From Cladosporium halotolerans (taxonomy: Eukaryota): a stretch of 64,000 bases of DNA. The stretch's first letter is position 1, and every line of letters begins with the position of its first letter. Below the pieces are notes generated by a model. That model was not told where the DNA came from. It saw nothing but the letters and a program-made list of their open reading frames with translations, and did not search any database. The stretch spans positions 930,001 through 994,000 of the forward strand of contig NW_027191456.1 of the NCBI RefSeq assembly GCF_011745625.1, written 5' to 3'. This document shows, piece after piece, positions 15,801 to 63,063 of this stretch. The translations under genes and the position numbers were made by a program.

Positions 15801-16673
15801 CACTGGAGCTATCGAACATCTTTGCAGTTTCTGCGAGAAGATCTAGGGCAATCCGGTAAAGCTCGGTAAGATCGGTCGCCAAGTAATTGCGGTTTGCGTT
15901 TTCTGCCAAGCTGGCGTTCTTCAGGTAGACAGTCTCGTAAGTGATGCCGCGATTCATGACGCGAATCACCTTCTCCGTAACTTGGAGCAGAGCATCCATT
16001 TGCTGGCTGTTCACCACGGCCACCTTAACAATGTGTGAGCATTCAAGTATTGAGGAGGGAGCAACGGAATCATACATTCAACAAACCCTTCACAACCGAC
16101 CAAGGAACGGCGGCCTGAGGCGGCGAGAACTGAACAGCTATGTCGCCCGCGGTCTGGATCATGCCAACTATGCTTTCCGTGTACTCCCGGAAGACGATGT
16201 TCTTGCCCGACACGGAGACACTCCATTGCTCTTCCTCAATCTTGGTCTGTTTCGCTTGAACAGTCGTCTTCAGCGCGTCGATGTTGTCTTTGGCATCTCC
16301 AGAGTCTTCATTGAACCCGAGAGTGGACAATCTTTCTTGAACGTCAGGCTCGAGACTGGCAAAAGCTTCCCGCCAGAGATTCTTCTCGCGGGTTTGTTCT
16401 TTCTCCTCGGTCTTAGGCTTCTCGGACCGAGGCTGGTCGATACGTTTTCCTTCCTCACCTGCGTTGTGCTGCTGTGTCGCCTTTGTGTCGGTAGGAGTTT
16501 GCGCGTGCGATTTTTGAGCACTCTTGCCGTTCTGGACTTCCCTAGATGGAGTCGTCTGCTGCTGCTTTACACCACGTCAGCCTTGTTGACACGCAGATAT
16601 CGGATAGGAATGATACCCACATCCTGCTCTTCTTTCGGCACACCGCCACAGCATCGTGATAGCAACCCCACAT
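12814..16673 (-). CDS. Fungal NLR-like NACHT-NTPase with C-terminal ankyrin repeats (5' end uncertain)
   Basis: N-terminal NLWREAF...AAVPWSVV helical domain, GTGQWLL, Walker A GTPGTGKT, Walker B ILIDALDE, FISSRP, GMFQWVALQ, RFSHLSVREYL, several ankyrin-like repeats; introns about 16565-16620, 16024-16075 and 15279-15329. Confidence 0.85.
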
Positions 16674-25500: not shown

Positions 25501-28500
25501 GGCCGTCAACGCTGACCTCGTCGCTGGCCTCGATGAGCTTGCCACCGAAGTACTCAACGACAGGGATCTTCTTCTCGTCACCAGCGTAGAGGTCCTTGGT
25601 GAGCATGGCAATGTGACCGTTGTGCACGCCGTCGAGGATCTCCTTGATGGGCTCATCGACCTTGGTGGAGTACTTGGCGGCCATCGGTCCCTGGAGAATG
25701 GCGACTCTGCCAACATCCTGGTCGACAACAGCCTCGAGGTCCTCAGACTGCCACAGGGAGTCCTTCTTGAAGAAGAACTCGAAGGTGTCGTCCAGGCAGG
25801 GGACGAAAGGCACGGGCTTCTGGCCGCGGCGCTGGCACAGGAGCAGGAAGTGCTGGCAGTCCTGAGCGTTGATGAGCTGGTCATCAGCCTCGGGGTAGGC
25901 CTCGAGAACCTTCTTGACAGTGGTGAAGGGCTCGTCGAGCTCGCTGTAGTTCTGGATGAGGGAAGGACCGTCAGCCTTGGCAAAGCGCTCCTCAATGCGA
26001 CGGATGAAGTCGCCGGTGAGCTTGGCCAAAGACTTGTCAATCCAGCGCTTCTGGTGCTTGACGAACATGAGGTCGACCATGCGGCGAACAACCTCACCGT
26101 AGGTCATGTCCTCAAGGTCGACGCACTCGCCGGCGCGGTTGCGGCCGAACCAAGGCTTCTGGAAGTCGTCGTTCAGCTTCTGGATGATGTACTCGCGCTG
26201 CTTCTTGAGCTCGGGAATACGCTTCGCCTTGTCAAGGCTGAAGATCTTCTGGTCCATCTCCGCCCAGAACTTGATACCGCGAGTGGCGATCTTGTGGATC
26301 GGCTCGCCCATCTCAGAGCGGACAGTGATGACACCACCGGCGGGGCCCTTGTAGGTCTTCTCCCACTCGTGGTCGTCGAGACCAGGGGCGTCGACGATGG
26401 CCTGCTTGGCCATCTTGGAGGTGTGCGCCTCCTTGGCGACCATGACACGGCTGCCGAAGAGGACACCGTCGAAGGGCATCGGGGGGTAGCCAAACTTCTG
26501 CGCCCAGGTACCAGTGAGGTAGGGGTAGGTGTCCTCGGAGCCACCGAAGCCGGAGCCGGCAAGGAGGACGAGGTTCGGGCAGCGCCTGATGCGAGTGTAC
26601 ATGGACAGAATCGGCTGGTGGAAGTCCTCGAAAGAGTGGTGACCACCACCGCGACCACCGGTCCACTGCATGATGACAGGGAAGTTGGGGTTCGCCTTGG
26701 CAATGTTGATGGTCTGCTGGATCGCCTCAGAGGAGCCGGGCTTGAAGCTGATGTGCTTGATGCCCAGAGTCTCAATGTACTCGTTGGCAACCTCAATCGA
26801 GGGCACACCGGCACCAATGGTAAGACCCTCAATCGGCACGCCCTCAGCACGCAGCCTGGCGATCATGGGGATCTGCCAGGCCATGGCCCTGGGTGCGACG
26901 TAGATCAAGTTGATGGTGATACCGCGACCAGCGGGAATCTCCTTCTCGATCTTGGCAATGGCCGCGGACATGGTCTTGTCGTTGTAGTATCCACCGCCAG
27001 CAAGCTCGATCTCGTAGCCAGCCTTCATGGTAGAAGCCACAAAGTCCCACGGCACGGTGCAAGGAGTCATACCTGCAACCATGACGGGAGGAAGACCCAG
27101 AAGTCTGCTCATCTTGGTGTCCACAAATGTCTGGCCGACAGATGTTCTCGCAAGCTTAGGTCCGTACTCTTTCACCCAGTCGACGGCGTACTTGACGGCG
27201 TGCTCGGCGTCGCGGTCGAAGATCTCAGGCTTGTAGCCGACCTCGGTGTTGGTGCCGTCCATGGTTCCCGCCAGAATCACACGAACACCGGTGCCGTCCT
27301 TGTTGCGGTTGGTAAGCACGCCGAGACCGGAAATGCCACCAGGGCCGAAGTCAAGGATGTGCGTGGCGTTGGGCATGACAGTAGCGACTTCCCAGTTGAC
27401 GGGATCCTTGCAGATCATGCGGATGAGGTCGGGAACAATGTTGCCACTGGTCTTCTCCCGGAGGTCCTCACCGGTGCAGGTGTCGAACACGGGGATGCCG
27501 AGCTCAGAAGAGGGGATAGAGACGGAGCTGAGGTCCTCCTGGAGGTGCTGGATGGCCTCTGCAAGGTAAGGGCTGTGGAAGGGAGCGGTGATGGGGAGGA
27601 AACGGTTCACGAAGCGAACCTTACGCTCGGTGAAGGGAATGCGAGTCTGATCGAGGCCAGTGGGAGCCTTGACCTTGCGAAGCTGGAGGTTCAGACCGTA
27701 GAGAGACATGGGAGGGCCGGTGACGACGAAGTTACGCGCGCTGTTCACCAGGGAGATACCAATGTGCCTGTCTTTCGGCAGGTGCTCGTTGGTCGTGTCA
27801 ATGTGCTTCTGGACTGCCTCCCGGGGAAGATCACGGATGGACAGCATAGGTGTGGGAGAGCCCTCGCCCTCGTCGATCGAGTCCTGCAGCACATTGGGGG
27901 CGAGAGAAGTGCGCGGGTAAGCCTGCTGGCTGCGAAGACCGATCCAGAAAAGGATGGTGAGCGCATCCCTCGAGGACTTGTCGAATGTCTCAAAGTTCTT
28001 CGAGGCGGCAATCGCAGCCGCGGTGACAACACCCTGCGAGTGACCGGTGGAACCGGAGAAACGCTCCCTGACGTGGCCGGGGTGCGTTCCCAGCACTCGG
28101 CACATGACGAGGTAGTGTGCGAGCTGGGTCAGACCGATGAGCGGGAAGCTGACGGGTGCGGAAACGAGGTACTCGGTGTCGGGCTGGGCGTCCTTGTTGT
28201 TCAACCAGCGCATGACATCCAGACCCTTGGGGTAAAGCTTCTCAGCCTTGGGGTCTCTGGCCAGCTGCTGGAGGTGCGCCGCAGCAGAGGTGATGAAGTC
28301 CTCGACGAGAGTCGGGTATGTGGTGTAAATCTCGCGCAGCTCGTCAAAGTACTCCTCGATGTTGCCCTGGCCGCCGAAGACGGCGTAGATGTAGGCATTC
28401 TCGTCCGCGGCCTCCCGCAGCAGAGCAGACTCGTGCGCCTTGATAGGGCGGCCGACCGCCGAGCGGGCGGCGTAGTAGGAGCGCGCGGTGATGAGCTTCT

Positions 28501-28882
28501 TCTCCACGATGCCGGGCAGGGTGGCGGCGATTGCGTGCACCTCGTTGCCGCGCAGGAAGGCGCGCTCGAACTCTTGTAGCAGTATCTTCAGGACCTCCTC
28601 GTACGAGCCGGGGTCGTCGCCCTCGTCGACCTCCTTGGCGGTGAAGCCGAGATATCTGGCGACCAGCTCGGTGACGGATGAGGGCTCGTCGTCCTGGGCG
28701 AGCTCGTCTGTGGGTTCGGGAAGGGTGGCAAGGAAGGCATCCTTGAGCTGGGTGGCGCTGAAATGAAGAGCAGTGGGTATTAAGAAGTTGTATTCGAGGG
28801 AGCCGTGGGTGAGGGTGAGCGGGCGCGAGACGGCCTGCGAGCGAGGCGTGGACACGCCGGTCTGGGCGCCGGAGCCGTACAT
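22546..28882 (-). CDS. FAS1: Fatty acid synthase subunit beta (AT-ER-DH-MPT)
   Basis: Start [66 protein letters not shown]; one coding intron 23655-23709. Confidence 0.97.
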
Positions 28883-30579
28883 TCTGCTGCTGGCCCTGCG
28901 GATGGCGTCCGGTCGCTGGGAGGAATTACTGAACTGGACGCTCATGGTCAGCGGACTGCAGCGGGCAATGCAATGGGAGGAGCAATTGAGAGCAGAGGTC
29001 AGGCGGCGGTCGGCGAAAGGAGCATGCTCGGCGGCGGGCGGCTGGAAGATTGGAAGTTCCCCGGGGCGAGGAAGCTGCAGCCTGCGAGGCTTTCCAGGTG
29101 TCTCGTGTGCCTGAGGAGCAGCTCGCGTTCCGCGTCCGGACTCGCTGGGGCTGGGAGAGCAGAGCGTACAGCTGGAGGGCCAATGGGTCGGGGACAAGTG
29201 GAATGGAGGGAGAGGCAGTCGCGGTGTCGGTGTTTGGGGGGGCAGATTTCGGCCGTAAGGCGTAAGGAGAGCAGCAGGCAGCACTTACGATTTACAGGCG
29301 TGCTCGCGGGCGGCAGGTCATGGGCGAGCTCTGGATTTTTCGCAGCTGGCCACGCTAGCGGGAAAGCTGCGGCGGAGAGGAGGGGGGAATGAGCGACGGC
29401 GGGCACGCGGCGGCGGAGGGTCGGGGGTGCGGCGTGTGTGCGGGTGTGCGAGTGAGGTTTGGTATAGGTAGAAAGTGGTAGACACGGAGAGGGAGGTGGT
29501 GCGGCGGAGGGCAGGACGAGGCAATGGGGTGGGACGCGGGTGCAGACGGACACTTAACACTCAGGCTGGCGGTGGTGCGTCGGGGCGCGGGCGCGGGCGC
29601 TGGGATGCTGGAGCCGTTGAAAGAGCTGGGTCGGTTGGTGAGGAAGCAGCCGCGTCCCTGCAGCAGGGCCAGCTGTGGGCCGGGCGGGAGTCGCTCGCTG
29701 CCTGCCGACGGTAGCGTGGCGCGTGGGCAGCAGTAGCGGCAGCCTCAGCAGCTCAGCACCTGCAGCGAGTCCTGGCCTCAGGCTGTTGAAGCTTGGGTTG
29801 GTCCCTCGCCCACCCGGCCAGCCAGCGCCGCAGCCCGCGCACCTCAGCGCCTCAGGCCCCAATGATCCCTCCTCGCCCGCCCAGCGCCCGCCGCTACCGC
29901 CCGCCGGACCACTCGAGCCAGCCTAACCACTGCTCTAACCACTGCCGGCTCTGCCTCTAGTTTTTCAAGGAGTCGCCGCCGTGTAGGGCACTCGCTGCCA
30001 ATTTACCACTTCACTGCACTCCATGATTGCACCGCCGCAGCTGCACAATATCACGGTAGCGCATGCACGTCAGGCTGTACGCGCCGCATTGAACCCTCCC
30101 CGCCGTCCCAACCTCCCTGCTTATCGTCAGCCTGCATCTCGCCTGCATACACCTCCCAGGATTTCCACCGCTCTCCGCAAACGCAAATCGTGCACGGCCC
30201 ACCATCGCACCTTGAGCTTCACTCCCAACAGCGTCGCGAGCGTCTCATCCGGTTGCACCCTGGCGCCTTGTACACACGACCACACCTGGCCTGATCATTA
30301 TCGCCCCGTCCGCCCGCCTCCTCCTTGCCCTCTCTCTCTCTTCCTCCAACTCCAATCCCCTCCCGCACCACCGCAATCCGCCCCGTGAGCTGCTCGGTCG
30401 AGGCTGCCTCGGGCAAATTTTCCACCCACTCCTACCACTCCACCTCCGTCTCGACCGCCGAACCCTCCCACCACCACCCACGGGCACCACCTTGATTCTC
30501 GCCAGCGAGTCGCCCGGCTCGTCAATTCGCTCTTTTACACTCTACATCCGCCTCTTAATACCCCTCCGCACCCGCCATC
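28883..30579. promoter_or_regulatory. Bidirectional FAS1/FAS2 promoter and 5' UTRs (GC-rich; FAS1 5'-UTR intron about 28934-29288)
   Basis: Head-to-head FAS genes; minus-strand GTAAGT at 29288, GCTGAC branch point and CAG acceptor at 28934. Confidence 0.7.
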
Positions 30580-33500
30580 ATGCGTCCCGAAGTCGAGCAG
30601 GAGCTCGCCCACACCCTGCTCGTCGAGCTGCTGGCATACCAATTCGCCTCGCCCGTAAGATGGATTGAGACCCAGGATGTCATCCTCGGCGAGAAGACCA
30701 CCGAGCGCATTGTCGAGGTCGGTCCCGCGGACACCCTCGGTGTCATGGCCAAGCGCACCCTGGCCGCCAAATACGAAGCCTACGATGCTGCCCGCTCCGT
30801 CCAGCGCCAGGTTCTCTGCTACAAGAAGGATGGCCCTGATATCTACTACGACGTCGAGCCCATTGAGGACGAGCCTGCTCCCGCCGCCGCGTCCAGCAGT
30901 TCTGCTGCACCCGCTGCTGCTGGTGCTCCCGCCGCCGCGCCTGCTGCCGCTGCGGCGCCTCCGCCTCCCAGCGCTGGCCCTGCGGCCGCCGTTGAGGATG
31001 CTCCTGTCGGCGCTGTCGACATCCTGCGAACACTCGTTGCTCAGAAGCTCAAGAAGCCCTTGACTGACATCCCTCTGAGCAAAGCGATCAAGGACTTGGT
31101 TGGAGGTACGTTCTTGCACAAATGAGATTGTTTCATTTCCTCACTAACACCACGTACAGGCAAGTCCACCCTCCAGAACGAAATCCTCGGTGACCTTGGA
31201 AAAGAGTTTGGATCCACACCTGAAAAGCCCGAAGACACTCCTCTTGACGAGCTGGGAGCGTCCATGCAGACCACCTTCAATGGCCAGCTCGGCAAGCAAT
31301 CCACATCTCTCATCGCCCGCATGGTATCATCAAAGATGCCTGGTGGCTTCAACATCACCGCTGTGCGGAAACACTTGGAGACAAGATGGGGCCTCGGCTC
31401 TGGCAGACAGGACGGCGTCCTGCTGCTTGCTCTGACCATGGAGCCTGCGGCTCGTCTTGGTTCGGAGAACGACGGCAAGGCCTGGTTGGACGATGTTACA
31501 CAGAAGTACGCCTCGGCTGCTGGCATCAGCCTGTCCAGCGGTCCCGCGGCCGGAGACGGCGGCGCGGGCGGCGGCGGCATGATGATGGACCCCGCCGCCA
31601 TCGAGGCCCTCACAAAGGACCAGAAGGCGCTTTTCAAGCAGCAGCTCGAGCTGTTCGCTCGCTACCTGAAGATGGACCTCAGGGCCGGTGACAAGGCTGC
31701 CGTCGCTGGCAAGGAAAACCAGGCCGCTCTGCAGGCGCAGCTCGACCTTTGGAACACCGAGCACGGAGAGTTCTACGCTGCCGGCATTGAGCCCTCATTC
31801 AGCGCGCTCAAGACCCGCGTCTACGACTCCTCCTGGAATTGGGCTCGCCAGGACGCCCTCACCATGTACTACGACATTATCTTCGGCCGCCTGAAGGCTG
31901 TCGACCGTGAGATTGTCAGCCGCTGCATTCTCATCATGAACCGCGCCAACCCCACCCTGCTTGATTTCATGCAGTACCACATCGACCACTGCCCGACCGA
32001 GCGTGGCGAGACCTACAAGCTCGCCAAGGAGCTCGGCGAGCAGCTCATCGACAACTGCAGAGACGTCCTCGACGAGGCGCCTGTCTACAAGGATGTCGCT
32101 GTTCCCACCGCTCCCCAGCTCAAGGTTGACGCCCGCGGCAACATGAACTACGAGGAGGTCCCTCGCGCCAGTGTTCGCAAGCTCGAGCACTACGTGCGTG
32201 AGATGGCCGAGGGAGGCAAGATCTCCGAGTATGGTAACCGCACCAAGGTCCAGAACGACCTCCAGCGCGTCTACAAGCTCATCCGCCAGCAGCACGGCGT
32301 CTCCAAGTCTGCGCAGCTTGAGATCAAGCAGCTCTACAGCAACATCGTTCGCTCTCTCGGCATGAACGAGGGTCAGATCATGCCGGCCGAGAGCGGCAAG
32401 TCCAATGGTGCTCTCAAGAACACCCGCACTGCTCGTGCTCAGGGCCCGACCAAGCAGGGCAAGATCGAGACCGTGCCCTTCCTCCACCTCAAGCGTAAGG
32501 ATGAGCACGGCTGGGAGTACAGCAAGAGGCTGACTGGCGTCTACCTCGATGGTCTTGAGGAGGCCGCTAGGGCCGGTGTCACCTTCCAGGGCAAGAACGT
32601 GCTCATGACTGGTGCTGGTGCCGGTTCCATTGGTGCTGAAGTCCTCCAGGGCCTCATCAGCGGTGGTGCCAAGGTCGTCGTTACCACCTCCCGCTTCTCT
32701 CGTTCCGTCACCGAGTACTACCAGTCCATGTACACCCGCTACGGTGCTCGTGGCTCTCAGCTGGTCGTCGCTCCCTTCAACCAGGGTAGCCAGCAGGACA
32801 CCAACGCTCTTGTTGAGTGGATCTACGACGAGAAGAAGGGTCTTGGCTGGGACCTCGACTTCATTGTCCCCTTCGCTGCCATCCCCGAGAACGGCCGCGA
32901 GATCGACAACATCGACAGCAAGTCTGAGCTCGCTCACCGTATCATGCTCACCAACCTCCTCCGCATGCTCGGTAATGTCAAGACCCAGAAGGCTGCCCGC
33001 AACTTCGACACCAGGCCTGCCCAGGTCATCCTGCCGCTTTCTCCCAACCACGGTACCTTCGGTAACGACGGTCTCTACTCCGAGTCCAAGCTCGCTCTCG
33101 AGACGCTGTTCAACCGCTGGCACTCCGAGAACTGGGGCAACTTCCTCACCATCTGCGGTGCTGTCATCGGCTGGACCCGTGGCACTGGTCTCATGGGTGG
33201 CAACAACATTGTTGCCGAGGGCGTTGAGAAGTACGGTGTGCGCACCTTCTCTCAGCAGGAGATGGCTTTCAACCTGCTCGGCCTGATGGCTCCGTCCATC
33301 GTCAACCTCTGCCAGCAGGAGCCTGTCTTCGCTGACCTCAACGGTGGTCTGCAGTTCCTGCCCAACCTCAAGGAGCTGATGACCAAGCTCCGCAAGGACA
33401 TCACCGAGACCTCCGAGATCCGCCGCGCCGTCACTCGCGAGACTGCGGTCGAGAACAAGATCGTCAACGGCGAGGCCAGCGAGGCTCTCTACAAGACTGT

Positions 33501-36270
33501 CAACGTCAACCAGCGCGCCAACATGAAGTTCGACTTCCCCAAGCTTCCCGACTGGAAGTCTGAGGTCGAGCCGATCAACTCGGACCTCAAGGGCATGGTC
33601 GACCTCGAGAAGGTCGTCGTCGTCACTGGTTTCGCCGAGGTTGGCCCCTGGGGTAACTCCAGGACCCGCTGGGAGATGGAAGCCTACGGCGAGTTCTCTC
33701 TCGAGGGCTGCGTCGAGATGGCTTGGATGATGGGTCTCATCAAGAACCACAATGGTCCCCTCAAGGGCCAGAGCTACTCTGGCTGGGTCGACGCCAAGAC
33801 CAACGAGCCCGTCGACGACAAGGACGTCAAGCCCAAGTACGAGAAGCACATCCTCGAGCACTCCGGTATTCGTCTCATCGAGCCTGAGCTGTTCAACGGC
33901 TACGACCCGAACAAGAAGGAGCTGCTGCAGGAGATCCAGACTCAGGAGGACCTCGAGCCCTTCGAGGCGTCCAAGGAGACTGCTGAGGAGTTCAAGCGTC
34001 AGCACGGCGACAAGGTCGAGATCTTCGAGCTTGAGTCCGGCGAGTTCTCCGTGCGTCTTCTCAAGAACGCCACGCTCCTCATCCCCAAGGCTCTCCGCTT
34101 CGACCGTCTCGTCGCTGGCCAGATTCCCACTGGCTGGAACGCCAAGCTCTACGGTATCCCCGACGACATCATTTCTCAGGTCGACCCGGTCACCCTCTAC
34201 GTCCTCGTCTCCACTGTCGAGGCTCTCCTGTCCTCTGGTATCACCGACCCGTACGAGTTCTACAAGTACGTGCACATCTCCGAGGTCGGTAACTGCATTG
34301 GTTCCGGTATTGGCGGTACCAGCGCTCTGCGCGGCATGTACAAGGATCGCTACCTCGACAAGCCTCTGCAGAAGGACATCCTGCAGGAGTCTTTCATCAA
34401 CACTATGAGTGCTTGGATCAACATGTTGCTCATGTCCTCCACCGGTCCCATCCGCACCCCGGTCGGTGCCTGCGCCACTGCCGTCGAGTCCATCGACATC
34501 GGTTACGACTGCATTGTCGAGGGCAAGGCCCGCATGTGCTTCGTTGGTGGTTTCGATGACTTCCAGGAGGAGGGTTCCTACGAGTTCGCCAACATGAAGG
34601 CCACCAGCAACGCCGAGGACGAGTTCGCCCACGGCCGCACCCCGGCTGAGATGTCTCGTCCCACCACCACCACCCGTAACGGCTTCATGGAGTCCCAGGG
34701 TTGCGGTATGCAGGTCATCATGGACGCCAAGCTCGCGCTCGACATGGGTGTCCCGATCTACGGTATCCTTGGCCTCACCGCCACTGCCACCGACAAGATC
34801 GGCCGCTCCGTCCCTGCTCCGGGCCAGGGTGTGCTCACCACTGCTCGTGAGACCCCGGGCAAATTCCCCTCGCCTCTTCTCGACATCAAGTACCGCAAGA
34901 GGCAGATGGATCTCCGCCGCAAGCACATCAAGAACTGGCAGGAGTCCGAGCTGATGTACCTGCAGGAGGAGGTTGCCGCAATGAAGCAGCAGGGCGGCAC
35001 CTTCGACGAGACCGAGTACATGGAGGACCGCGCCGCTCACATCGAGCGCGAGGCCAGACGCCAGGAGAAGGACGCCCTGTACAGCCTGGGCAACAACTTC
35101 TGGAAGTCCGACCCCAAGATCGCTCCTCTGCGCGGCGCCCTCGCTACCTGGGGCCTGACCATCGACGACCTGAACGTCGCCTCCTTCCACGGCACCTCCA
35201 CCGTCGCCAACGACAAGAACGAGTCCGACGTGCTCTGCCAGCAGATGAACCACCTCGGCCGCCAGAAGGGCAACGCGCTCATGGGCATCTTCCAGAAGTA
35301 CCTCACCGGCCACCCCAAGGGTGCCGCCGGCGCGTTCATGTTCAACGGCGCCCTGCAGGTCCTCAACAGCGGCCTCGTCCCCGGCAACCGCAACGCCGAC
35401 AACGTCGACAAGGTCATGGAGAAGTTCGACTACATCGTCTACCCCAACCAGGCCATCCAGACGGACGGCATCAAGGCCTTCTCCGTCACCTCCTTCGGCT
35501 TCGGCCAGAAGGGCGCCCAGGCCATCGGCATCCATCCGCGCTACCTCTTCGCCACCCTCGACGCCGCCCAGTTCAACGCCTACAAGACCAAGGTCGAGGC
35601 CCGCCAGAAGAAGGCCTACCGCTACTACCACGACGGCCTGATCAACAACAACATCTTCCGCGCCAAGGACAAGTCGCCCTACGAGGACGCGCAGCAGTCC
35701 GCCGTCTTCCTCAACCCAGACGCCCGCGTCGCCCTCGACAAGAAGTCCGCCGGCCTCATGTACCCCAAGAAGGCCCCCGCCAAGCCCCAAGACAAGAGCA
35801 CCACCGAGATGGTCGAGTCGCTCATGAAGGTCAACGCCTCCGCCAATTCTAACCCCGGCGTCGACATCGAGAGCATCGACGCCCTCGACATCCACAACGA
35901 TACTTTCGTCGAGCGCAACTTCACCCCGCAGGAGATCGCTTACTGCCGCGCCCAGCCCAGCCCGCAGGCCTCTTTCACGGGCCGCTGGAGCGCCAAGGAG
36001 GCCGTTTTCAAGAGCTTGAAGGTCGAGGGCAAGGGTGCGGGCGCGCCGCTGAGGGAGATCGAGATCGTGAACGCCGAGACGGGGGCGCCGACTGTTGTGG
36101 TGAGTTCATCGTGTTGACTATGAGGTGTTATGGGATGTTTGCTAATATCGTCTTTACAGCTCCACGGCGACGCCAAAGCTGCCGCTGCTAAGGCTGGCGT
36201 CAAGGATACCACGGTCAGCATCTCGCACAGCGACGCGCAGGTCATCGCTGTTGCTATCTCGTCGTTCTAG
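30580..36270 (+). CDS. FAS2: Fatty acid synthase subunit alpha (ACP-KR-KS-PPT)
   Basis: [77 protein letters not shown]; introns near 31106-31159 and 36100-36159; stop 36268-36270. Confidence 0.97.
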
Positions 36271-48683: not shown

Positions 48684-49108
48684 ATGTCTGCCACCGCTGC
48701 CATTCCTGCCACCTGCTGCGGTCGCGAGGGAGGGTGCATTTGCGCCTCCGAGGCTAAGTGCTCCTGCGGCAAGCAGCCTGCCCTCCACTGTACCTGCGAG
48801 AAGGCTCAAACCGAGAACAAGACCTCAGGAGCTAGGTGCTCTTGCAGTAAGTTTATGATCGGCAATGGCCAACACCGATACCGCTGTCTTTCAGATTGAT
48901 CGTCCGACGGAAACTGACTCCTATGACAGACCAGCGTCCTGCCGGCGAGTGCACTTGCAGCCGTTCTAGCAACGAGAACAGCAAGCCCACCGGCTCCGCC
49001 TGCGCCTGTGGCAAGAGGTCTCAGGATGCTTGCAACTGCGGTGGCACTGAGATTGGCCAGGCTTCGGACCTCGAGACCGACTTCACCACCAAGGCCTCTG
49101 GTGCCTAA
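48684..49108 (+). CDS. Cys-rich metallothionein-like (Crd2-type) protein, 2 exons
   Basis: CC, CxC and CSCG repeats: TCCGREGGCICASEAKCSCGKQPALHCTCEKA...RCSC/NQRPAGECTCSRS...CACGKRSQDACNC...ETDFTTK. Confidence 0.8.
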
Positions 49109-49658
49109 ATCATTTTGAGCATGGGCTGTGGCATGGGGAGCTAGCATGTGGCGTTTGGGGCTGAGGCGTTTGGGCGGTAAGGTTATGGCATGAATGGACG
49201 AGTACCCAAACATTTGCTTTGAACGGAATCATGATCGTGTAATACGAAAACCAAATCAAGAAATCGGCGACCGTCCATTTTACACGTAATGTGCCAAACA
49301 GGCGATGGGTAGAGATGGTGTAGAACACCTCAATCCATTGATGCTCATCTATCTTCCCCTCCGTTCTCTAAAAGTCGTGTCATCATCTCTGACTATGTAA
49401 CGTTGCACCATGAGCCGCATGGGCTTCTTCACCGTATAGCGTCTAGATTCCAAATTTCTTTCGCTCTAGAATCCAGCCCAGCTAATAAACTTCCAAGTCC
49501 AGGACTGTTCATCACATATGCCCGGAAGTCATTCCTCAACTCGTGACTATACGAATTAGGTTGTTCAAGAGATACGAGCCATAGTCGTGGGGATCTCAAA
49601 TCCTTGTGTTCTGGTATACGCAACCGGAGTGATCAGGACTCTGACGCAAGGCTGGAGC

Positions 49659-50390
49659 TCACTGATCAGCAGCTTGTTCTTTCCTGTGTTGTTCCTTCAA
49701 CCTCTTCTCAATCTTCATGAATTCCCGGATTCCCACTGGCACGCCTTCGAAGAGGTCTTTCTCTCCTTCATCGGCTCCCTCCATCACGTCCCAGTTTGTC
49801 TCTGATCCTCCACCATCGTCGTCCATACTTGTTGCTGCATGCGTGGGCATACCGCCTTCTTTCGACATCATTCCAGTAGCCTGTCCCTTGATGCGCTGCT
49901 CTTGCATCTTTTGTCGTGCCTCCTTGCTCGCCGCTGCCCACTCTTCCAATTCGTCCCGATAGCGATCCCAAACGCAATTTACGCATCCAGACATACAGCA
50001 GTTGTCTGGCTCATCTGGACGAGGAGGCACAAGCACACCGGCAATGTTCGTAGAAGCTTTCTTGAGTTCCGCCTCTCGCGCGTCAGGATCAGCTGTCCGC
50101 GAGCCAAACAGTGCTTGCGCTTTAAGCGCCTGCTCCTCCGGTCCAGTTCTCGGTCGCTCGATGGGTGGCGGAGTCGCAGGAGGAGGTACACTATTCGTGC
50201 CTGCCTGTACGGGGTTTAAAGGCGCGTTTAGCGAGTCCTCGGCGTATTCATCGATTCTTTGGGCGTCGGCGGACTTGTGCCTGATTCCGAAGGCACTGCG
50301 GTGTGCGTTGACTCTCGCGGGCCTGCATTGCACTCGTTTGAGCGTGGAAATTGCCAGAGAAGTGCATTGTGACCGCATTCTCTGGTGCAT
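49659..50390 (-). CDS. Mitochondrial oxidoreductase-like domain protein (OXLD1/Dpc25-like)
   Basis: Arg-rich presequence-like N-terminus; PPRPDEPDNCCMSGCVNCVWDRY; PVGIREFMKIEKRL. Confidence 0.85.
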   Translation of the reverse strand: MHQRMRSQCTSLAISTLKRVQCRPARVNAHRSAFGIRHKSADAQRIDEYAEDSLNAPLNPVQAGTNSVPPPATPPPIERPRTGPEEQALKAQALFGSRTADPDAREAELKKASTNIAGVLVPPRPDEPDNCCMSGCVNCVWDRYRDELEEWAAASKEARQKMQEQRIKGQATGMMSKEGGMPTHAATSMDDDGGGSETNWDVMEGADEGEKDLFEGVPVGIREFMKIEKRLKEQHRKEQAADQ

Positions 50391-51317
50391 GGAAATTGTA
50401 GAGTTGGGCGAAGGAAAACACGAGCGATTGATCTGCTTTCCGCTTTGCGACCTCACTTCGCGCGGACTGTGACGTCAGGCTTGCAGCGATCTCATACCAT
50501 GTGTGAATCGGATTTCCGTGGCCATTATGGCGAAGCGGCTAGACCAGTTCGAAGAGCTGACTCTAATTTGACAGGAAACAACTACGGTTCGGAGAGAACG
50601 AATTCAATGATTATCGAGACTGCCTTGGTGGGACGGAGGATGCTTGTAGGTTTTGCGGTGACTTGAAGCTTCACGCGAACCTAAAGATGAGACTTATCAC
50701 AAGGCCCAAGATCGAAAAAGGCAACATGGTTTTAGCATACATTAGATGAGGCATAGAGACGTGCTTTCGATTTTCACTCCACCAGGGCGCTCACTTGAGG
50801 ACATACCGGACGGTAGGGCTACCTTGATCCTCACTTCATTTGAACCTAGGTTTTCAAACAACGAAGGCAAGCACTGGCGCATGATCCAAGCTGTCACTGT
50901 AATATCAAATTGCGCATACATTTTGATGCGTCAAATGAAGTATGTGTAGGTCCCAACCAGCGCAAAAGAATCCAACATAAGGCTATTTGCAATGATTTGC
51001 ATAGGATTCGTAAGGTAGCTTCGGTTTTAACGGCAGCCGAAGCTGAAATAGGCGTAAGAACGGAGCAGCAAGAATCTTCGGTAACTTCGTCTATGCACCC
51101 AATCACGTCTTTAGAGAGATATTGCGTTGTCGACCTCGGACGGCCATTGCAACCCTCACATTAGCCTCACATCATCTTTATGCTGCCCTCACATTGACCT
51201 CGAAAGTTTGTTGCTGACTCCAACACGCCTCGTCCCATCTCACCTCAGACTGGAATAAAAAAGACCTCTCTGCCAGTGGCACTTGTGATTATGCATACAT
51301 TAGGAACAATTCGAGGC

Positions 51318-51323
51318 AAAAAA
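51318..51323 (-). terminator. RNA polymerase III terminator (T6)
   Basis: TTTTTT 5 nt after the tRNA discriminator base. Confidence 0.75.
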
Positions 51324-51328
51324 GAGAT

Positions 51329-51480
51329 TACCGTGGACGCGGTTCGAACGCGCGCGGATCGCTCCAGTAGAGTAATGTTGAGGTCAACTTAAATCTACCG
51401 CCTTAGACCACCTGGGGAAATGTTAACGGAGGCCCCTGATTGGCCTGATTCCGGAAGAAAACTTACTCGGCCACCACGGT
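51329..51480 (-). tRNA. trnL-UAA: tRNA-Leu(UAA) interrupted by a 55-nt spliceosomal-type intron in the D-loop (51412-51466) and a 15-nt canonical intron after position 37 (51373-51387)
   Basis: Spliced: ACCGTGG TG GCCGA|GTGGTCTAAGGC G GTAGA TT TAA G|C TCTAC TGGAGCGATCCGC GCGCG TTCGAAC CGCGT CCACGGT A. Perfect 7-bp acceptor stem, class II variable arm, intact B box, T6 terminator at 51318-51323. Confidence 0.9.
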
Positions 51481-52161
51481 GTGCATTTTGACGTCATTTC
51501 GGTCTTTTACAGCTATAACTACTATAAACCAACACAGTTTGACTAGGAAGCATGTGAATCAGCCAGCTTCACGTTTGGTTCAGTGTCATGGCGCTCGAGG
51601 GGATCGAATTGTGATTGCATTTTCGTAAATTGAGTTCACAATGTGAGATTACACCTAGTCATCTATCTTGAATGCTTCAGCAAACTTGAGGGAGCATACG
51701 TTTCGGGTCGTCACTACTGGTGCCCATATGTAGCCAGTGACAACTCCATGTGGGTTCTTATACCACATCATTCTCGCAGAACAAGTCGATTGAGACATTA
51801 ATGCATCATCGGCAGCACACCATATGCCACTCCTTGAACGAGCGCGAACATAGACCTCTCGGTTTCCCATAGCTCACTGAGAACTAAGGAAACCTAGCCG
51901 CTCCCGCTTGGGCTGATAACTTGTATGGAACATGGAATGGTATGGTTCTTTTTCCTTTCACATGGTAATACACCGAATCTCATGTACCTCGCTGCTGCAT
52001 GATTGAATCTTGTGGTACACCGCCATTATATGTACACTTTCCCTCGAAATGATGTTGGCTTGCAGCGCAAAAGCCGATCCTCTACCCCCAATGTTCTTGC
52101 ACAACTCGTAACCAGAGTTGTTACTTCTTCGCTCAATACCATCGCACGATTTGTTGCTCGT

Positions 52162-52725
52162 TCAAGAGGGACGGCCGGGGAAAGTGCGGAGACCGTCGCG
52201 GGAGGTGGCAGACGCGCGCTTGAAGCTCTGGGTCGCTCATCAGTATAATGCCATCGAAAGAAGTGAGCTGAATCTAGACAAGCAGAAGCTGCCGATTCGA
52301 TCGTGCCGCGTGGGCTAAACACAACGGCGCTCCCACTCCTGCTAATGTCCATAACGCCCAACTTCTTCTCAACATGTACTTACAGAGTCGCACTCCTCCC
52401 AAGCCCTTCCAGCGCCGAATCCAAGACCTGTGAAGACTGGCCACGACCTGCGTTTGAAAAGGAGGACGGAGAAGATTACACCAAAAGACGCGCCGAGGGT
52501 GCTGCGGATGAGGAGAGTGCTAAGGCAGTGGTCCCACTGCAAGGCTAGTTAGCTTGCGTTCCCAGCATACATCGGCGATACGGATAATTTCTCCCCATCG
52601 ACCCAGTCTCTGATATGCTCTTGGCAAGCACTTCATACCTTCTCGTTAAGCAGAGCCTCACTCATCGGCCTGTTGGGGCGGGCCGCAGCGGCGGTGATGG
52701 GCGCGTTGGTGTTTGAGTCGGCCAT
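52162..52725 (-). CDS. MIC10: MICOS complex subunit Mic10 (3 exons; not in ORF track)
   Basis: MADSNTNAP...SEALLNEK/WDHCLSTLLIRSTLGASFGVIFSVLLFKRRSWPVFTGLGFGAGRAWEECDS/SFKRASA...*; GxGxGxG TM motif and KRR loop. Confidence 0.92.
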
Positions 52726-52984
52726 TGTGTATGTGTGGATAGTCTTGGAAGTGACAGAAAGACAAGAGTCGTAGCGAACTTGACACCTCCAATTGCTAGA
52801 GCGTTATGCGATCTTGAGGGAGCTCGTGAAGTCCAATGCTGGAGCTGTTAAGCTGCCGGGATTGTCCGCGCGAGTGCACGGGCCACAATCAAAAAGTTGA
52901 AACCGCCAAAGATCTTAGATTCGGGGCGAATCCAGACGTCTGACCTCGCATCCTGTGAGCAGAACGGGGAGACGCAAGAACATC

Positions 52985-55900
52985 ATGGGAGGCGTCGACT
53001 CGGATAAGGTGGATGTCGACTCACAAATTGCAGCTGAGCCCTCACTGCAACGGCTCAAGGCTCTGGACTCTCTCCCTGATCTTCAATCGCAACTGAAGAC
53101 CGCGAGCGAGTTCTGCAATCATGGATTCCGTGCGGAGATGATTCTGAGATGGCTCGTTTCTAAGCTACAGAACGACAAGAAAGCCTGCAGGAACGAAGTC
53201 GCTTGGACGCTGCTCGAGAGATGTTTTCGCCTCGTTGCACCTCACAAACTCGGAAATTTGCTTGCTCGATTCAATGTCGTGTTCATTGCACAGACTGCAA
53301 TCCAAAGTCTGCAGGATCATACCTTTTCAACGTTAATGAGCGTAATCACACGATCGATTGAAACCTTGGAAGAGATCTCGTCTGGACCAGATGGCGCGCC
53401 AGTCAAACAACTCTTGAGCACAGAGAGTGCATCTGCGGCGTCTTTCCTCGGCGCCTGGGCCAAAGCCGTGGACAGTCTACTACAGACAACCGACATCTCG
53501 GAGACGGATGCGAATGAGTTAGTTCCTTTGGCTGCTCCAGCAATCCGCCTGTGGGCAAATCGGAAACCTGGAAACCTGGAAAACGACGCATTCGCGGAGA
53601 ATTGCTTGATCCCATGTGCCCTTTTACTCCGCAATCTTGAATCTCGAGATCCTTCAGGCTCATCCACAAAGCGTAAAAGAGGTGAGCATGCTGGATCGCT
53701 GAGTAGGACGAACCTTTCACAGGATCTTGAAGTTCTTATTGCGCGTCACATCTTTCTTCCTGCGCGGTCGGCCTTCTTCCAGACCAGCGACTCTGAAAGG
53801 AACATCCTCGAATTGAGAGGGAAGCTGGCCAGTTTGAGTGCACAAATCGAGGTCGTGGATGAAACGAGCAAGCAGCTGTGCGAGGCTTTACCCAATCTGC
53901 TTGATATTGCTCTACGTTGCATCCCCATGACAACTGCACGGCAGCGCAGTAAGGAACGCCCTTGGGTCGAAGCTGTATTCCTCGAGCTCCTAACGTGCAT
54001 TGAGCACGACGGAAAGCTCAGAAGTCAGGCGGCGCTGGTGAATATGCTTCAAGTTGTTGGCAAGCGGGCTTCATTGCCCTCCACCACTTTGAAGGACATT
54101 GTACGCCGTCACAGTAATCTCAGTCCGACAGAGAAATTTGCATCAGCGGATATTGCCCTGATTGCGGAGATCATTGCGTTGGATCCCACTATTTTCTTAG
54201 AGAAAGACTTGGCCGATCAGTTATTCCCTGCTTTGACTACTGCTTCGAAGCAGATGTTGTCGGCAGACGATACCGATTCAAAGAATCTATTGGTCAGGTC
54301 AATCGCCCAGCCAGTTATGCGCGCATTCGCAAGCAGCCGTAAGCTCGGCGATTTCGTGCAAAGATGGCACCAGCAGCTTCTGATGGCCGACAAGCCCTTG
54401 TCATGGACCGTGTGGACTCAACTGGACGATGTTTTGGCGGAACTTCTAGAAATTCATTTGACTGTCGATCAGGTCGAAGGTTTGTTTGACTCTGTGCATG
54501 CACAGGGCGCAGCCAGCTCGAAAAACACTGGGAAATCTTCAGACGGACTGTCTGCCTCATCACATTGGGCAACTGCCACTGTGCTACTCGCTCTGCTCAA
54601 GGGTATCAAGAATGACGAATACGTTGCCCGACTGCAGGGAAGGCTTGGAGAGATCATGCACACTACCCTGGCCCTTGTCGAAGACAGTAAGGTCAAAGCC
54701 GTGTCTCCCCAAGTTTGGCTCATGCTAGGTCTTTCCTTCGAATTATGGTTTCCCACTTGGGCCGCTGCCCAACAGGATCCCAACTCGGTGTCCGATAAGG
54801 CACGATCGATACTGTCTCATCCTGCGTTGAAGCGAATTGTCAAAGCCAGAATTTCCGGAAAGGACGTTGAGCACGCTGAGATCTTTATTGGTCTGGTTTG
54901 CTCTCGCCTCAAAGGCTATGACGAATGCCGGCAGCTCGCAGCAGGTCTTGTCGCTAGCCTTTCTAAGTCTTCAACCACTGTTTCGCTTGCATTTCTGTCT
55001 TTCCCCGATCTGCTCATGCTCCTCGAAAAAGACGCCAGACAAGACATGATCTCGTCCGTGGCTGATTCGGCGATCGTTCAAGTATCGACGAAAGGCAACT
55101 CGGAACACTTTGAAAAGGTTACCGCCTTTGTTGAATCCGCACTCATTGCTTCCCACTCGAAGCTTTCTGACGAAGTCATCGTGGCGATTTTGAAGGCATC
55201 TGACTCTCAAGGCAAAAATAGCCAACAAGAACATACTGTACTGGATCTGATGCTGCAGCTCCCCGTGGCGAGTCTCACGCGAGGTCAGCGGGAGCGCATT
55301 CTTGACTGGGTCGTTGGTCTGGACTTTGGCGTGGAATCTGATGAGTCTCGCATATCGAAGCGTTATTCAGTCATGATTCGGCTCATGCAGCTCCCGAATG
55401 CGACAGCTCGTCTCTGCACCGATGCATCTGCTTTGTGGAGTCTGTGCCGGACATCGGCCGCACCTAAGAAGAACAAACAGGGCAAAGAAAAGAAGGAAAA
55501 GGCCAGTATGGCAGCAACAGATGCAGCCTCAGTCGAGCTACTCCAGGACGTTGTGCGTTCCGTGGCTGTCTACTTGCTGTCAACACAAGATCAAGAAAGA
55601 TCGCGCCTCATGTTGAGGAATCTGGTTCAGGAAGCCGTCCAAAGAATGGGCAGAGTAGACTTCGAAGATGGCTCTTCTTGTGACCAGCTTGCCATCATCA
55701 GCACCATCGTACAATGTACAGAAGGTGGCTTGGGTAAAGGTGTGTTCGCACATCTGACAGATGACTTCGCCCCGCTCGTTGCTGCATTTGCCGCTCGTAT
55801 CGTCGAAGAAGCCCAAAGTTCTGTCAAGACTCTCAAAAAGCAACACGACGTTCAAGGTGCTGGTGTAATGCCCAAGCTTCTTTTGGAGCTACTCATCTGC

Positions 55901-57022
55901 TTGCGTAGATCCAGTGTTGTTGGAGAAACGGACGACAAAGCACTAACAAAGCTCTGTAACAAGGTGCTGTCTAGAAATTCGGACGACATCGCGACGACCG
56001 GCAAAACGAGGCAGAGTGCGAGTGGCTTGCTGCTACCGGCTTTCAATCTGCTCGCTCAGATCAAGGGTTTCGAAGCCTGTAGCTCTTTGGGCGAGGCGCT
56101 TCTCAAGTCAACTCTTTCGCCGAAGGATAGACAGTCCCTCATGGAAGAGCTCAGGAAAATGGCAAAGCTATCCAGCTCGATTGACCGGATCAGCGTACTG
56201 AAAAGCATTGTCCCAGACACGAAAAGTGCCGGAGCACAAGCTATCACGGTGCTGCAGAATGCTCTTACCGCTTTCACAAGGGAGGCGGCGGCAAAGGACG
56301 AGAAGATGGTGCATGCACTTTACCTGCAGCTACTGGAAACACTTCGAGGAACAAGCGACTTCGCCTCCTACACTGCCTCTGTATCCTGTCTCCTGACAAT
56401 CATCCGGGAGAAGCCATTCATGCTCAACCAGCATCTGACCGAAGAAACTCTGCGAACAATTCAGGCACTTTCTCGACCCTCTCCAGCTGAGCGTCTGGTT
56501 TACCTAGACCTTTGCTCTATCCTCTCCGCTTTGCTCCTGCATCACCGAGCTCGCTTGCAGGGCCGCTTTCACCTCCTGATCGCCACGCTACAAACCTTGC
56601 AAGGTCGCCTCTTTGTTCAGCACAAATCGGCATCTGAGTCAAGGAGGCCTCTCGCCTCGCGTCACGCTCGCGCATATACGCGCCTGCTGACTTTACTGTG
56701 CAATCCTCCCACGCGCACGCACAATAACGCCAGCAACAAGCGTAATGACCTCGTTGACGAAACGCGACGCGCACGCGCGCACGTCGGACAGTATGTGCCT
56801 ACCCTCCTGCATAGCTTTTGTGCGCAGGTGCTCAGTGGCGCCTTGGGCGAGGGTGTGCGCGAAGCGCTGACGCCTGGTCTTTGGGCGGTTATTGAGGCCA
56901 TGGAGGTGCAGAGTCCTGAAGCCGTCAAGGCGCTGAGCGCGGGAATGAATAATAGCGAGCGCGCTGTCCTGAGGAGTGTGTATGATGACTGGAAGAAGTT
57001 TGGAAAGTGGGAGGGCGCTTGA
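52985..57022 (+). CDS. URB2: Nucleolar pre-ribosome-associated protein Urb2/Npa2
   Basis: About 1345-aa helical ORF with C-terminal Urb2 domain (RLQGRFHLL, YTRLLTLLC, LTPGLWAVIEAM, LRSVYDDWKKFGKW). Confidence 0.85.
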   Translation: MGGVDSDKVDVDSQIAAEPSLQRLKALDSLPDLQSQLKTASEFCNHGFRAEMILRWLVSKLQNDKKACRNEVAWTLLERCFRLVAPHKLGNLLARFNVVFIAQTAIQSLQDHTFSTLMSVITRSIETLEEISSGPDGAPVKQLLSTESASAASFLGAWAKAVDSLLQTTDISETDANELVPLAAPAIRLWANRKPGNLENDAFAENCLIPCALLLRNLESRDPSGSSTKRKRGEHAGSLSRTNLSQDLEVLIARHIFLPARSAFFQTSDSERNILELRGKLASLSAQIEVVDETSKQLCEALPNLLDIALRCIPMTTARQRSKERPWVEAVFLELLTCIEHDGKLRSQAALVNMLQVVGKRASLPSTTLKDIVRRHSNLSPTEKFASADIALIAEIIALDPTIFLEKDLADQLFPALTTASKQMLSADDTDSKNLLVRSIAQPVMRAFASSRKLGDFVQRWHQQLLMADKPLSWTVWTQLDDVLAELLEIHLTVDQVEGLFDSVHAQGAASSKNTGKSSDGLSASSHWATATVLLALLKGIKNDEYVARLQGRLGEIMHTTLALVEDSKVKAVSPQVWLMLGLSFELWFPTWAAAQQDPNSVSDKARSILSHPALKRIVKARISGKDVEHAEIFIGLVCSRLKGYDECRQLAAGLVASLSKSSTTVSLAFLSFPDLLMLLEKDARQDMISSVADSAIVQVSTKGNSEHFEKVTAFVESALIASHSKLSDEVIVAILKASDSQGKNSQQEHTVLDLMLQLPVASLTRGQRERILDWVVGLDFGVESDESRISKRYSVMIRLMQLPNATARLCTDASALWSLCRTSAAPKKNKQGKEKKEKASMAATDAASVELLQDVVRSVAVYLLSTQDQERSRLMLRNLVQEAVQRMGRVDFEDGSSCDQLAIISTIVQCTEGGLGKGVFAHLTDDFAPLVAAFAARIVEEAQSSVKTLKKQHDVQGAGVMPKLLLELLICLRRSSVVGETDDKALTKLCNKVLSRNSDDIATTGKTRQSASGLLLPAFNLLAQIKGFEACSSLGEALLKSTLSPKDRQSLMEELRKMAKLSSSIDRISVLKSIVPDTKSAGAQAITVLQNALTAFTREAAAKDEKMVHALYLQLLETLRGTSDFASYTASVSCLLTIIREKPFMLNQHLTEETLRTIQALSRPSPAERLVYLDLCSILSALLLHHRARLQGRFHLLIATLQTLQGRLFVQHKSASESRRPLASRHARAYTRLLTLLCNPPTRTHNNASNKRNDLVDETRRARAHVGQYVPTLLHSFCAQVLSGALGEGVREALTPGLWAVIEAMEVQSPEAVKALSAGMNNSERAVLRSVYDDWKKFGKWEGA

Positions 57023-61693: not shown

Positions 61694-63063
61694 ATGAAGG
61701 TGTGTTATCGCGTTACACAGACGACGTCGCGACCGCGCGCCAATGCCAAATATCACCACCCTGATGGAGCTCGCGCGTTGTGTTGCCGTTTGTGCTGCCC
61801 GTCAGCGCATCCAGCGTTTCAAGCCGCCCGCGAGCTGGTCGCGACGGTCGATCTACGCGCGTCGTGAAATAGTAGCTAACAACATTGCAGTACATTCCAA
61901 TTGGTGAGATTAACGCAGTAAACAGCGCGATTAACTTCTCTACGCCTGATCTCCATGTCATTGGCGGCTGCGACATCTACACGACAAAAGCCGCGGGCGG
62001 AGACAAGAAACTGTACAAGAACATCGAAGATGCACTGGAATCGCAGTATGCGACTCTCGTCCAGCTGTCTGCGTCGCTTAGTCCGCCTCCCGAGATCAGC
62101 AAGCGCAATGATAAGCATAGAGATTCCACTGCAAGCGCTCAAGATTATGGAAGAAATGAGAGGAAGCGCAGTCGCACGGTTGAGATCCCGGAGATTGATC
62201 TCTCCCGAGCGTCCCCCTTCGGACCCCTGAGTCAAGTGTCGTCCAGGCGCACGTTTGCGTATCTGATTGCAACCCTCAATGCAAGTCACTCTGACTACGA
62301 CTTCTCGCACCTTCTACGACCCTCAGACTTCCAGAAGGAGCGTTCCCTCCGTGCCCTTGTGCACAACGTCGACTCGACGCTCTACAACTTGCGCCCCCGT
62401 CACAGCAGCCTGGTTGCGAACCAGCAATACCTTGCACCGCCGAACCTCTCCAGCTCAGCTCCCGTGTCTAATGGTCTCGGCAATGAGGTATGGGGCCCTA
62501 GGATGTGGTCTCTCATTGACAAGGAGATGAACCTCCGCGAATGCGAGAGATACAGCTACATGCCTCAGGACGACCCATTTGACGGCGAGGAGGGCGCAAT
62601 ATGGAGTCTGCACTACTTCTTCTTCAACAAGGAGCGCAAGCGCGTCTGCTATCTCTATCTTCGCGGTCTCAGCGTGCTTTCGCACTCGCCTGTCCATGCG
62701 CCCATGCACATTCACCGAACTCGCCAAAGCCGCGATTCTGGCGTCTCCGTCGGTGAAGGTGCCGGCAAGCGAGCAGATTACTGGCTCGGCTCAAGCATCG
62801 ATGAAAATATCATGGATGAGGGCGAGTACGAGGATGACGACGATGAGATCATCCACGACGAGTATGAGCACCAGGACGACGAAGTTGAAGTCCCCTACAT
62901 GGACCTGGACGAAGTGAGAAACCGCATTGTCGACGGCTACAACTACGATTTTGAGGAGATTGAATACGAAGAAGATACCTCCTCCTGGGCTGTCGACAAC
63001 GGGACGAAGACGAGAGGCGTAAGAGGCATGAGCGAGGAGATTGGCGATGCGATGGAGATATGA
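61694..63063 (+). CDS. MAF1: Repressor of RNA polymerase III transcription Maf1
   Basis: MK/YIP (intron 61700-61890), GGCDIYTTKAAGGDKKLYK, FGPLSQVSSRRTFAYLIATLNASHSDYDFS, IWSLHYFFFNKERKRV, acidic tail. Confidence 0.95.

Follow-up and report, generated by a model that had tools for sequence, protein, structure and literature searches.

A fungal tRNA-Leu(UAA) gene interrupted by a spliceosomal-looking D-loop insert and an endonuclease-type insert at position 37/38

Nuclear tRNA genes are, in the textbook account, interrupted by introns of one kind, which lie at 37/38 and are removed by a protein endonuclease. Passages of PMC10275265 describe the canonical eukaryotic tRNA intron as lying between N37 and N38, with a length of 14-60 nt in budding yeast, and as being complementary to N33-N35 or N34-N36 of the anticodon loop. 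In the same account a C32 or U32 pairs with an A or G at the antepenultimate intron position, and the bulge of 3 nt at the 3' site results from this A-I pair; the existence of pre-tRNAs whose BHL motifs are 'slightly different' is mentioned there too.

Nuclear tRNA genes with more than one intron have been described in Cyanidioschyzon merolae. As set out in portions of PMC3728597, these include genes with an intron in the D-arm and another at 37/38, the arrangement that we report here, as well as genes combining a T-loop intron with one at 37/38. Removal is ordered, the 37/38 intron always leaving last, and the authors explain this by a Sen54-containing enzyme that requires the mature domain. 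The introns of C. merolae and of archaeal multi-intron tRNAs are, according to those portions, of the bulge-helix-bulge (BHB) type and served by one endonuclease, whereas the D-loop insert described below has GT-AG ends and a branch-like word and no BHB.

Spliceosomal removal of an intron from a small non-coding RNA is known from U6. The spliceosome excises the S. pombe U6 intron (Tani and Ohshima 1989, 1991; Canzler 2016, as cited in PMC5855946), and mRNA-type introns occur in many fungal U6 genes and also in U1, U2 and U5 genes, as stated in sections of PMC5855946. From those sections, the fungal U6 introns resemble the insert studied here insofar as they are short, carry a 5' splice site, a branch sequence and a 3' splice site, sit inside a small non-coding Pol III gene, and otherwise lack sequence conservation. 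The host differs, since here it is a tRNA whose precursor also carries an endonuclease-type intron, and the origin proposed for U6 introns, reverse splicing at the spliceosome active site, is not obviously applicable to a tRNA. Our search of the openly accessible literature yielded no account of a tRNA gene with a spliceosomal intron.

The gene lies in a 64-kb window, by which we mean the whole stretch of DNA analysed. It is a class II tRNA-Leu(UAA) gene on the minus strand at 51480-51329, interrupted by two inserts and 152 nt long with both included; all parts of the gene given here are on that strand. Exon 1 (51467-51480) comprises tRNA positions 1-14, that is, the 5' strand of the acceptor stem, U8, G9, the 5' strand of the D-stem and, as its last base, A14. 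A 55-nt insert of mRNA-type, spliceosomal-looking character (51412-51466) then separates A14 from G15. Exon 2 (51388-51411) runs from G15 to G37 and supplies the rest of the D-loop with G18 and G19, the 3' strand of the D-stem and the 5' strand of the anticodon stem, with the anticodon TAA at 51391-51389 and G37 at 51388. The second insert, 15 nt long (TTGACCTCAACATTA, 51373-51387), lies exactly between G37 and C38, and exon 3 (51329-51372), which begins with C38 and ends with the discriminator A73, provides the 3' strand of the anticodon stem, a long variable arm, the T arm with the B box and the 3' strand of the acceptor stem. The original prediction had placed a 15-nt insert directly after G37 and a separate GT-AG insert in the same gene, and the sequence confirms both.

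The gene is missed by standard tRNA models because of the 55-nt insert. ARAGORN, run also with its intron option, reported no tRNA genes on the unmodified 64-kb window, Rfam gave no matches at the gathering score in the window, and an Rfam search of 51250-51560 with E-values up to 10 gave no tRNA match. Two Rfam matches at the locus, 'TUG1_2' (E=0.4) and 'DnaX' (E=4.3), were dismissed as chance. When the 55 nt were deleted in silico, ARAGORN drew an 82-nt class II cloverleaf with a 15-nt intron in the anticodon loop, a 7-bp acceptor stem, 5-bp anticodon and T stems and A73; the D-stem pairs G10-C25, C11-G24 and C12-G23 were checked by hand. ARAGORN sets the 15-nt intron one base off and names the tRNA Ile(tat); we assign it as Leu(UAA) because of its long variable arm, G37, A73 and the canonical 37/38 placement.

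The 55-nt insert begins with the 5' splice site GTAAGT (51466-51461), contains a branch-like TTAAC (51426-51422) whose branch A is 11 nt from the 3' end, and closes with the pyrimidine-rich CCCCAG, ending at 51412. The tRNA alignment permits only three equivalent registers for its borders, and one of these is GT...AG. We defined a composite intron signal as GTRNGT...YTRAY (with the A 8-20 nt from the end)...YAG in segments of 45-70 nt. This signal was present in 29 of 3,325,062 window segments, and in 5 when GTAAGT was specified, both counts including genuine introns and the present insert. Chance alone does not account for the GT-AG insert. A looser version of the motif was rejected as non-discriminating, with 82 occurrences observed in the window against 71 +/- 9 in Markov-1 simulations.

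For comparison we used mRNA introns of the same window, taken as GT-AG segments that join long open frames and checked by the continuity of Pfam profiles. Two were verified in this way: a 52-nt intron at 5578-5527, across which the Sugar_tr profile stops and resumes at position 120, and a 54-nt intron at 31106-31159, across which Fas_alpha_ACP positions 1-38 are followed by 37-162. A third, of 55 nt at 7167-7113, is plausible and joins the halves of a glucosidase II beta-like gene. The three have the 5' splice sites GTGAGT, GTACGT and GTAAGT, a CTAAC that lies 11-12 nt before the end, and either CAG or TAG at the 3' end. The tRNA insert matches these introns (52-55 nt) in size and in the geometry of its signals, with one mismatch: its branch word is TTAAC where theirs is CTAAC, a T for C at the first position. 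The 55-nt insert is, on these sequence features, most likely a U2-type spliceosomal intron. One point speaks against spliceosomal removal, namely that the 5' exon would lack a cap and consists of just a leader and 14 nt.

Introner-like elements, described from Dothideomycetes and other fungi in parts of PMC4457414, are a source of newly gained spliceosomal introns. They occur as many near-identical copies in one genome. No second copy of the 55-nt insert was found in the 64-kb window, the best other match being 11 nt. Those parts of PMC4457414 draw no link to tRNA genes.

The locus was then compared with relatives. A run search gave 17 rows containing part of the locus, none of them recorded as RNA, and the comparison used contigs from four runs (X1, X2, X4 and X7), which are probably DNA. 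Both inserts are present in the contigs of all four, in which no joint across either insert and no start or end was seen. X1 is identical to the window, over 51293-51462. X2 differs at 2 gene positions (51444 and 51445) and at 6 within 151 nt of flank downstream. In X4 a single gene position differs (51444), along with 16 in the downstream flank and 11 plus 2 indels in the upstream flank; the flank differences listed sit at or below 51306 or at or above 51500, which leaves a conserved block at about 51307-51499, covering the tRNA and some 20 nt to either side. In X7 the 7 substitutions and 2 indels all lie within 51419-51451, and beyond 51497 it is unalignable.

All 9 variable gene sites in the three non-identical relatives fall in the 55-nt insert, at insert positions 15/16, 19, 21-23, 40 and 46-48. 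Its GTAAGT (positions 1-6), TTAAC (41-45) and CAG (53-55) are unchanged. The exons and the 15-nt insert are variable at 0 of 97 positions, against 9 of 55 in the 55-nt insert (Fisher p=7e-5), a figure taken from relatives with a complete difference listing, each position being covered by at least one such relative; the 15-nt insert itself shows 0 differences in X2, X4 and X7. X7 taken alone gives the same contrast (9/55 against 0/83, p=1.7e-4). For X4 alone, the gene differs at 1 of 152 positions and the flanks at 29 of 271 (p=3e-5); three differences near the contig ends of X4, two upstream and one downstream, are unlisted, and in the worst case, with 2 unlisted differences put in the gene, p becomes 0.0014. 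This pattern, in which the signals are kept and the interior drifts, is what a selected gene with a spliceosomal intron would leave in the sequence.

These comparisons bear on whether the gene is dead or dying, its 55-nt insertion merely resembling an intron and nothing being matured from it. Such a state would fit a gene that neither ARAGORN nor Rfam, the latter even with E-values up to 10, can detect, whose A box is split and whose 15-nt intron is not a textbook BHL intron. The constancy of the exons and the 15-nt insert next to flanks that are about 10% different or unalignable in the relatives argues against it, however, as do the preservation of the splice signals while the insert interior changes and the great rarity of the composite intron signal by chance. 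We consider a dead gene very unlikely.

One further X4 contig, 343 nt long and at a depth of 10.3, matches only 51447-51481, a segment made up of exon 1 and the 20 nt at the start of the 55-nt insert. The match contains 5 differences, and the contig is unlike the locus on both sides of it. It may be another locus that shares the junction, or a chance match. A loose pattern scan of metagenomes (18 specified bases, 31-step gap) gave no D-loop inserts among the 119 loci listed; 3 of these 119 gave a tRNA across the junction, all of them neighbouring tRNA genes (Ser, Cys and Ser). Specific patterns gave 0 matches in prokaryote and virus contig collections, as expected there.

The same evidence bears on the number of machineries. 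If the tRNA splicing endonuclease removed both inserts, as it does in C. merolae or archaea, one machinery would suffice, and nuclear tRNAs with D-arm and 37/38 introns that are processed by the endonuclease in order are indeed known from C. merolae (portions of PMC3728597). At the D-loop insert of the present gene, however, neither a BHB nor a relaxed BHB is found in any of the three registers, the central helix forming 2, 1 and 2 of 4 pairs and the outer helices being poor. The substitutions at insert positions 21-23 in the relatives break both the predicted hairpin of the insert and its pairing with G18-G19 of exon 2, so the interior of the insert is free of structural constraint, and all the signals of a spliceosomal intron are present in the insert. 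Removal of both inserts by one endonuclease is, in our assessment, hardly credible. The original prediction that one pre-tRNA carries two different kinds of intron is supported by sequence and conservation together, through the signals and their geometry, the missing BHB and the 37/38 position, and the reading in which two machineries act is well supported at this level.

In its sequence elements the gene is arranged like a Pol III unit: a B box and a T6 terminator are present, and the A box, though split, is largely preserved. The B box, GTTCGAACC (51349-51341), is the only tRNA-type B box near the gene, and the T6 run (51318-51323), which resembles a Pol III terminator, follows 5 nt after A73; the 55-nt insert contains no run of at least 5 T. 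An A-box-like word starts at 51473 and spans the junction of exon 1 with the 55-nt insert. Judged by what we take to be the A-box consensus, the insert cuts the box after its 7th base and the GT of the insert keeps 9 of 11 positions. The starts of the A box and B box are 124 nt apart instead of 54, and together with the split of the A box this spacing could weaken Pol III transcription.

Upstream of the gene, two TATA-like TTATAG words on the minus strand (51513-51527, about -47 to -33 from tRNA position 1) are a possible upstream Pol III promoter element. This stretch is substituted in X4 at 51513, 51524 and 51526, with a further substitution just beside it at 51512. The 17-19 nt directly 5' of the tRNA are the same in X4 and X7, while the farther flank diverges or is unalignable: X7 matches up to 51497 and is unlike beyond it, and the first upstream difference listed for X4 is an indel at 51500. 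This minus-strand block kept in X4 and X7 (51481-51499) may, from its position and conservation, represent the leader and the region where Pol III starts, and it might matter for the length of 5' exon that the spliceosome can use.

An intron spliced from a longer Pol II transcript, from which the tRNA would be excised by RNase P and RNase Z, would place the splicing step on more familiar ground, since the spliceosome normally acts on capped Pol II transcripts. The split A box and the location of the tRNA gene between divergent Pol II genes 2.4 kb apart are compatible with such a route. Against it stand the T6 run right behind A73, the intact B box and the lack of a run of at least 5 T in the insert, and, mildly, the confinement of X4 conservation to about 51307-51499, the size of a Pol III unit. 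U6 shows, moreover, that Pol III transcripts can be spliced (sections of PMC5855946). A Pol II route seems to us distinctly unlikely, and Pol III transcription remains our preferred reading.

The 15-nt insert fits introns of the endonuclease (SEN/TSEN) type in its position at 37/38 and in its length. With respect to the canonical BHL introns outlined in passages of PMC10275265, it shares the 37/38 position, a length of 15 nt that is within the range, and a potential, marginal complementarity to N34-N36; it differs in that those introns have a C32/U32:A/G pair and a 5' cut in a loop, whereas here a U.U combination stands in place of the pair and the cut is predicted to fall in a helix. The original prediction had called the insert typical of TSEN-type introns, and this is only partly so. 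N32 is U and the antepenultimate intron base is also U, so the A-I pair is not formed, and the helix in which the 5' cut is predicted to lie has 4 bp. A BHB-style central helix forms 1 of 4 pairs. Since variant BHL motifs exist in other pre-tRNAs, the non-textbook form of the insert is still compatible with SEN, and removal by SEN/TSEN followed by tRNA ligase is the most likely fate that its sequence suggests.

The folding proposed for this insert needs amending in two respects. A fold-back between GTTGA and TCAAC is predicted as a hairpin of 4 bp, the 5-bp version leaving a disallowed 2-nt loop; in the predicted hairpin, G37 and intron positions i1-i3 pair with i8-i11 around the loop ACCU, with a pair probability of about 0.99, so that the arm with the 15-nt insert consists of a 5-bp anticodon stem and this 4-bp hairpin. 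The proposed pairing of TTA with the TAA anticodon is possible, as UUA at the intron's 3' end is able to pair with U34 A35 A36, but it comprises three A-U pairs only and is marginal (unpaired probability 0.47-0.63). Shuffled 15-nt inserts have TTA at the 3' end in 4% of cases and TTA anywhere in 44%. The anticodon stem has a modelled probability of 0.03 in forms that lack the 15-nt intron and of 0.97-1.0 in forms that contain it, and on this model the intron may help the precursor to fold.

The original prediction had the D-loop intron removed first, by the spliceosome, and the 37/38 intron second. That the spliceosome acts before TSEN is plausible by analogy with described systems. TSEN54, TSEN34 and TSEN2 make contact with both acceptor stem and D-arm, as reported in part of PMC10485636, and in budding as well as in fission yeast SEN is found at mitochondria, on their cytoplasmic side (passages of PMC10275265). 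We infer a cytoplasmic SEN in this fungus also, since the two yeasts bracket the ascomycetes. The exporter Los1/Exportin-t binds tRNA tertiary structure. The last place of the 37/38 intron in C. merolae, in the portions of PMC3728597 already referred to, points the same way. In the fold model the D-stem probability rises from 0.04 to 0.40 when the 55-nt insert is taken out, and the cloverleaf penalty falls from 3.2 to 1.4 kcal/mol; RNAfold is weak here, misfolding even the mature tRNA with a cloverleaf penalty of 3.4 kcal/mol, so these values agree only weakly with a spliceosome-first order.

Both machineries might also act in no fixed order, SEN cutting at 37/38 with or without the D-loop intron present. 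This would come about if SEN were nuclear in this fungus or if precursors leaked out via Mex67-Mtr2 or Crm1, and both half-processed intermediates would then exist. Human TSEN cuts substrates consisting of the anticodon stem-loop with its intron, slowly and with low activity (passages of PMC10275265), which counts against a strict order. So do exporters other than Los1, several of which are less specific. The fold of the anticodon arm with its 15-nt intron is, in addition, unchanged by the 55-nt insert (stem probability 0.97 against 1.0). On the other side are the cytoplasmic SEN of both studied yeasts (PMC10275265, same passages) and C. merolae, where intermediates missing just the 37/38 intron were looked at and not found (same portions of PMC3728597). 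We judge the absence of a fixed order unlikely.

On balance we lean towards a working, selected gene whose 55-nt intron is removed first by the spliceosome and whose 15-nt intron is removed afterwards by SEN. From what was observed, namely the gene anatomy, the lack of a BHB, the match to window introns and the conservation, we infer each RNA step and their order as follows. Pol III would make a precursor of about 170 nt, from which a U2-type spliceosome would remove the 55 nt in the nucleus, with the lariat at TTAAC. The D-arm and elbow would then form and the ends would be trimmed, and the resulting 97-nt intermediate would be exported. SEN would measure from the mature domain and cut at 37/38, and tRNA ligase would join the halves. 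A dependence of RNase P on the first step and a regulatory checkpoint for tRNA-Leu(UAA), both raised in the original prediction, are speculation. As a tentative and rather doubtful extension, the D-loop intron could keep the Pol III transcript unfolded and nuclear until it is spliced, with end trimming, export and cytoplasmic SEN cleavage following only then. On this extension the supply of the UUA-reading tRNA-Leu would depend on spliceosome activity, two evolutionarily unrelated splicing systems would form an obligatory relay on a single RNA of 152 nt, and standard tRNA gene catalogues of such fungi would be incomplete.

If the proposed pathway is correct, spliceosomal splicing of Pol III transcripts reaches beyond U6, and the gene provides a substrate, found in nature, that two splicing systems have to process one after the other. 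It would allow the dependence of SEN, RNase P and the exporters on an intact D-arm to be tested directly. It would also mean that tRNA finders miss real fungal genes, as ARAGORN and Rfam do with the tRNA-Leu(UAA) gene here, with effects on tRNA counts and on inferences from codon usage.

The gene content of the window is fungal, with a split fatty-acid-synthase pair, Urb2, Maf1, Brr6 and an adaptin gene. An Oxidored-like gene (49662-50474, minus strand) and Urb2 (52919-57019, plus strand) flank the 2.4-kb gap around the tRNA. Open frames at 50850-51164 (plus), 52026-52379 (minus) and 48806-49228 (minus), of 104-140 codons, gave no Pfam match, and the gap may hold nothing but the tRNA gene. Maf1, a conserved Pol III repressor, is encoded at 61876-63060 on the plus strand (Pfam E=9.5e-63), about 10 kb from the tRNA gene, a proximity that is probably coincidence. 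The beta and alpha subunits of a fungal-type fatty acid synthase are encoded by divergent genes at 22607-29284 (minus) and 30559-36114 (plus), and the 54-nt intron of the alpha gene (31106-31159) lies within the ACP domain. A large protein with an NPHP3_N (NACHT-like) domain and ankyrin repeats, of the fungal NLR-like kind, is encoded at 12817-16077 on the minus strand.
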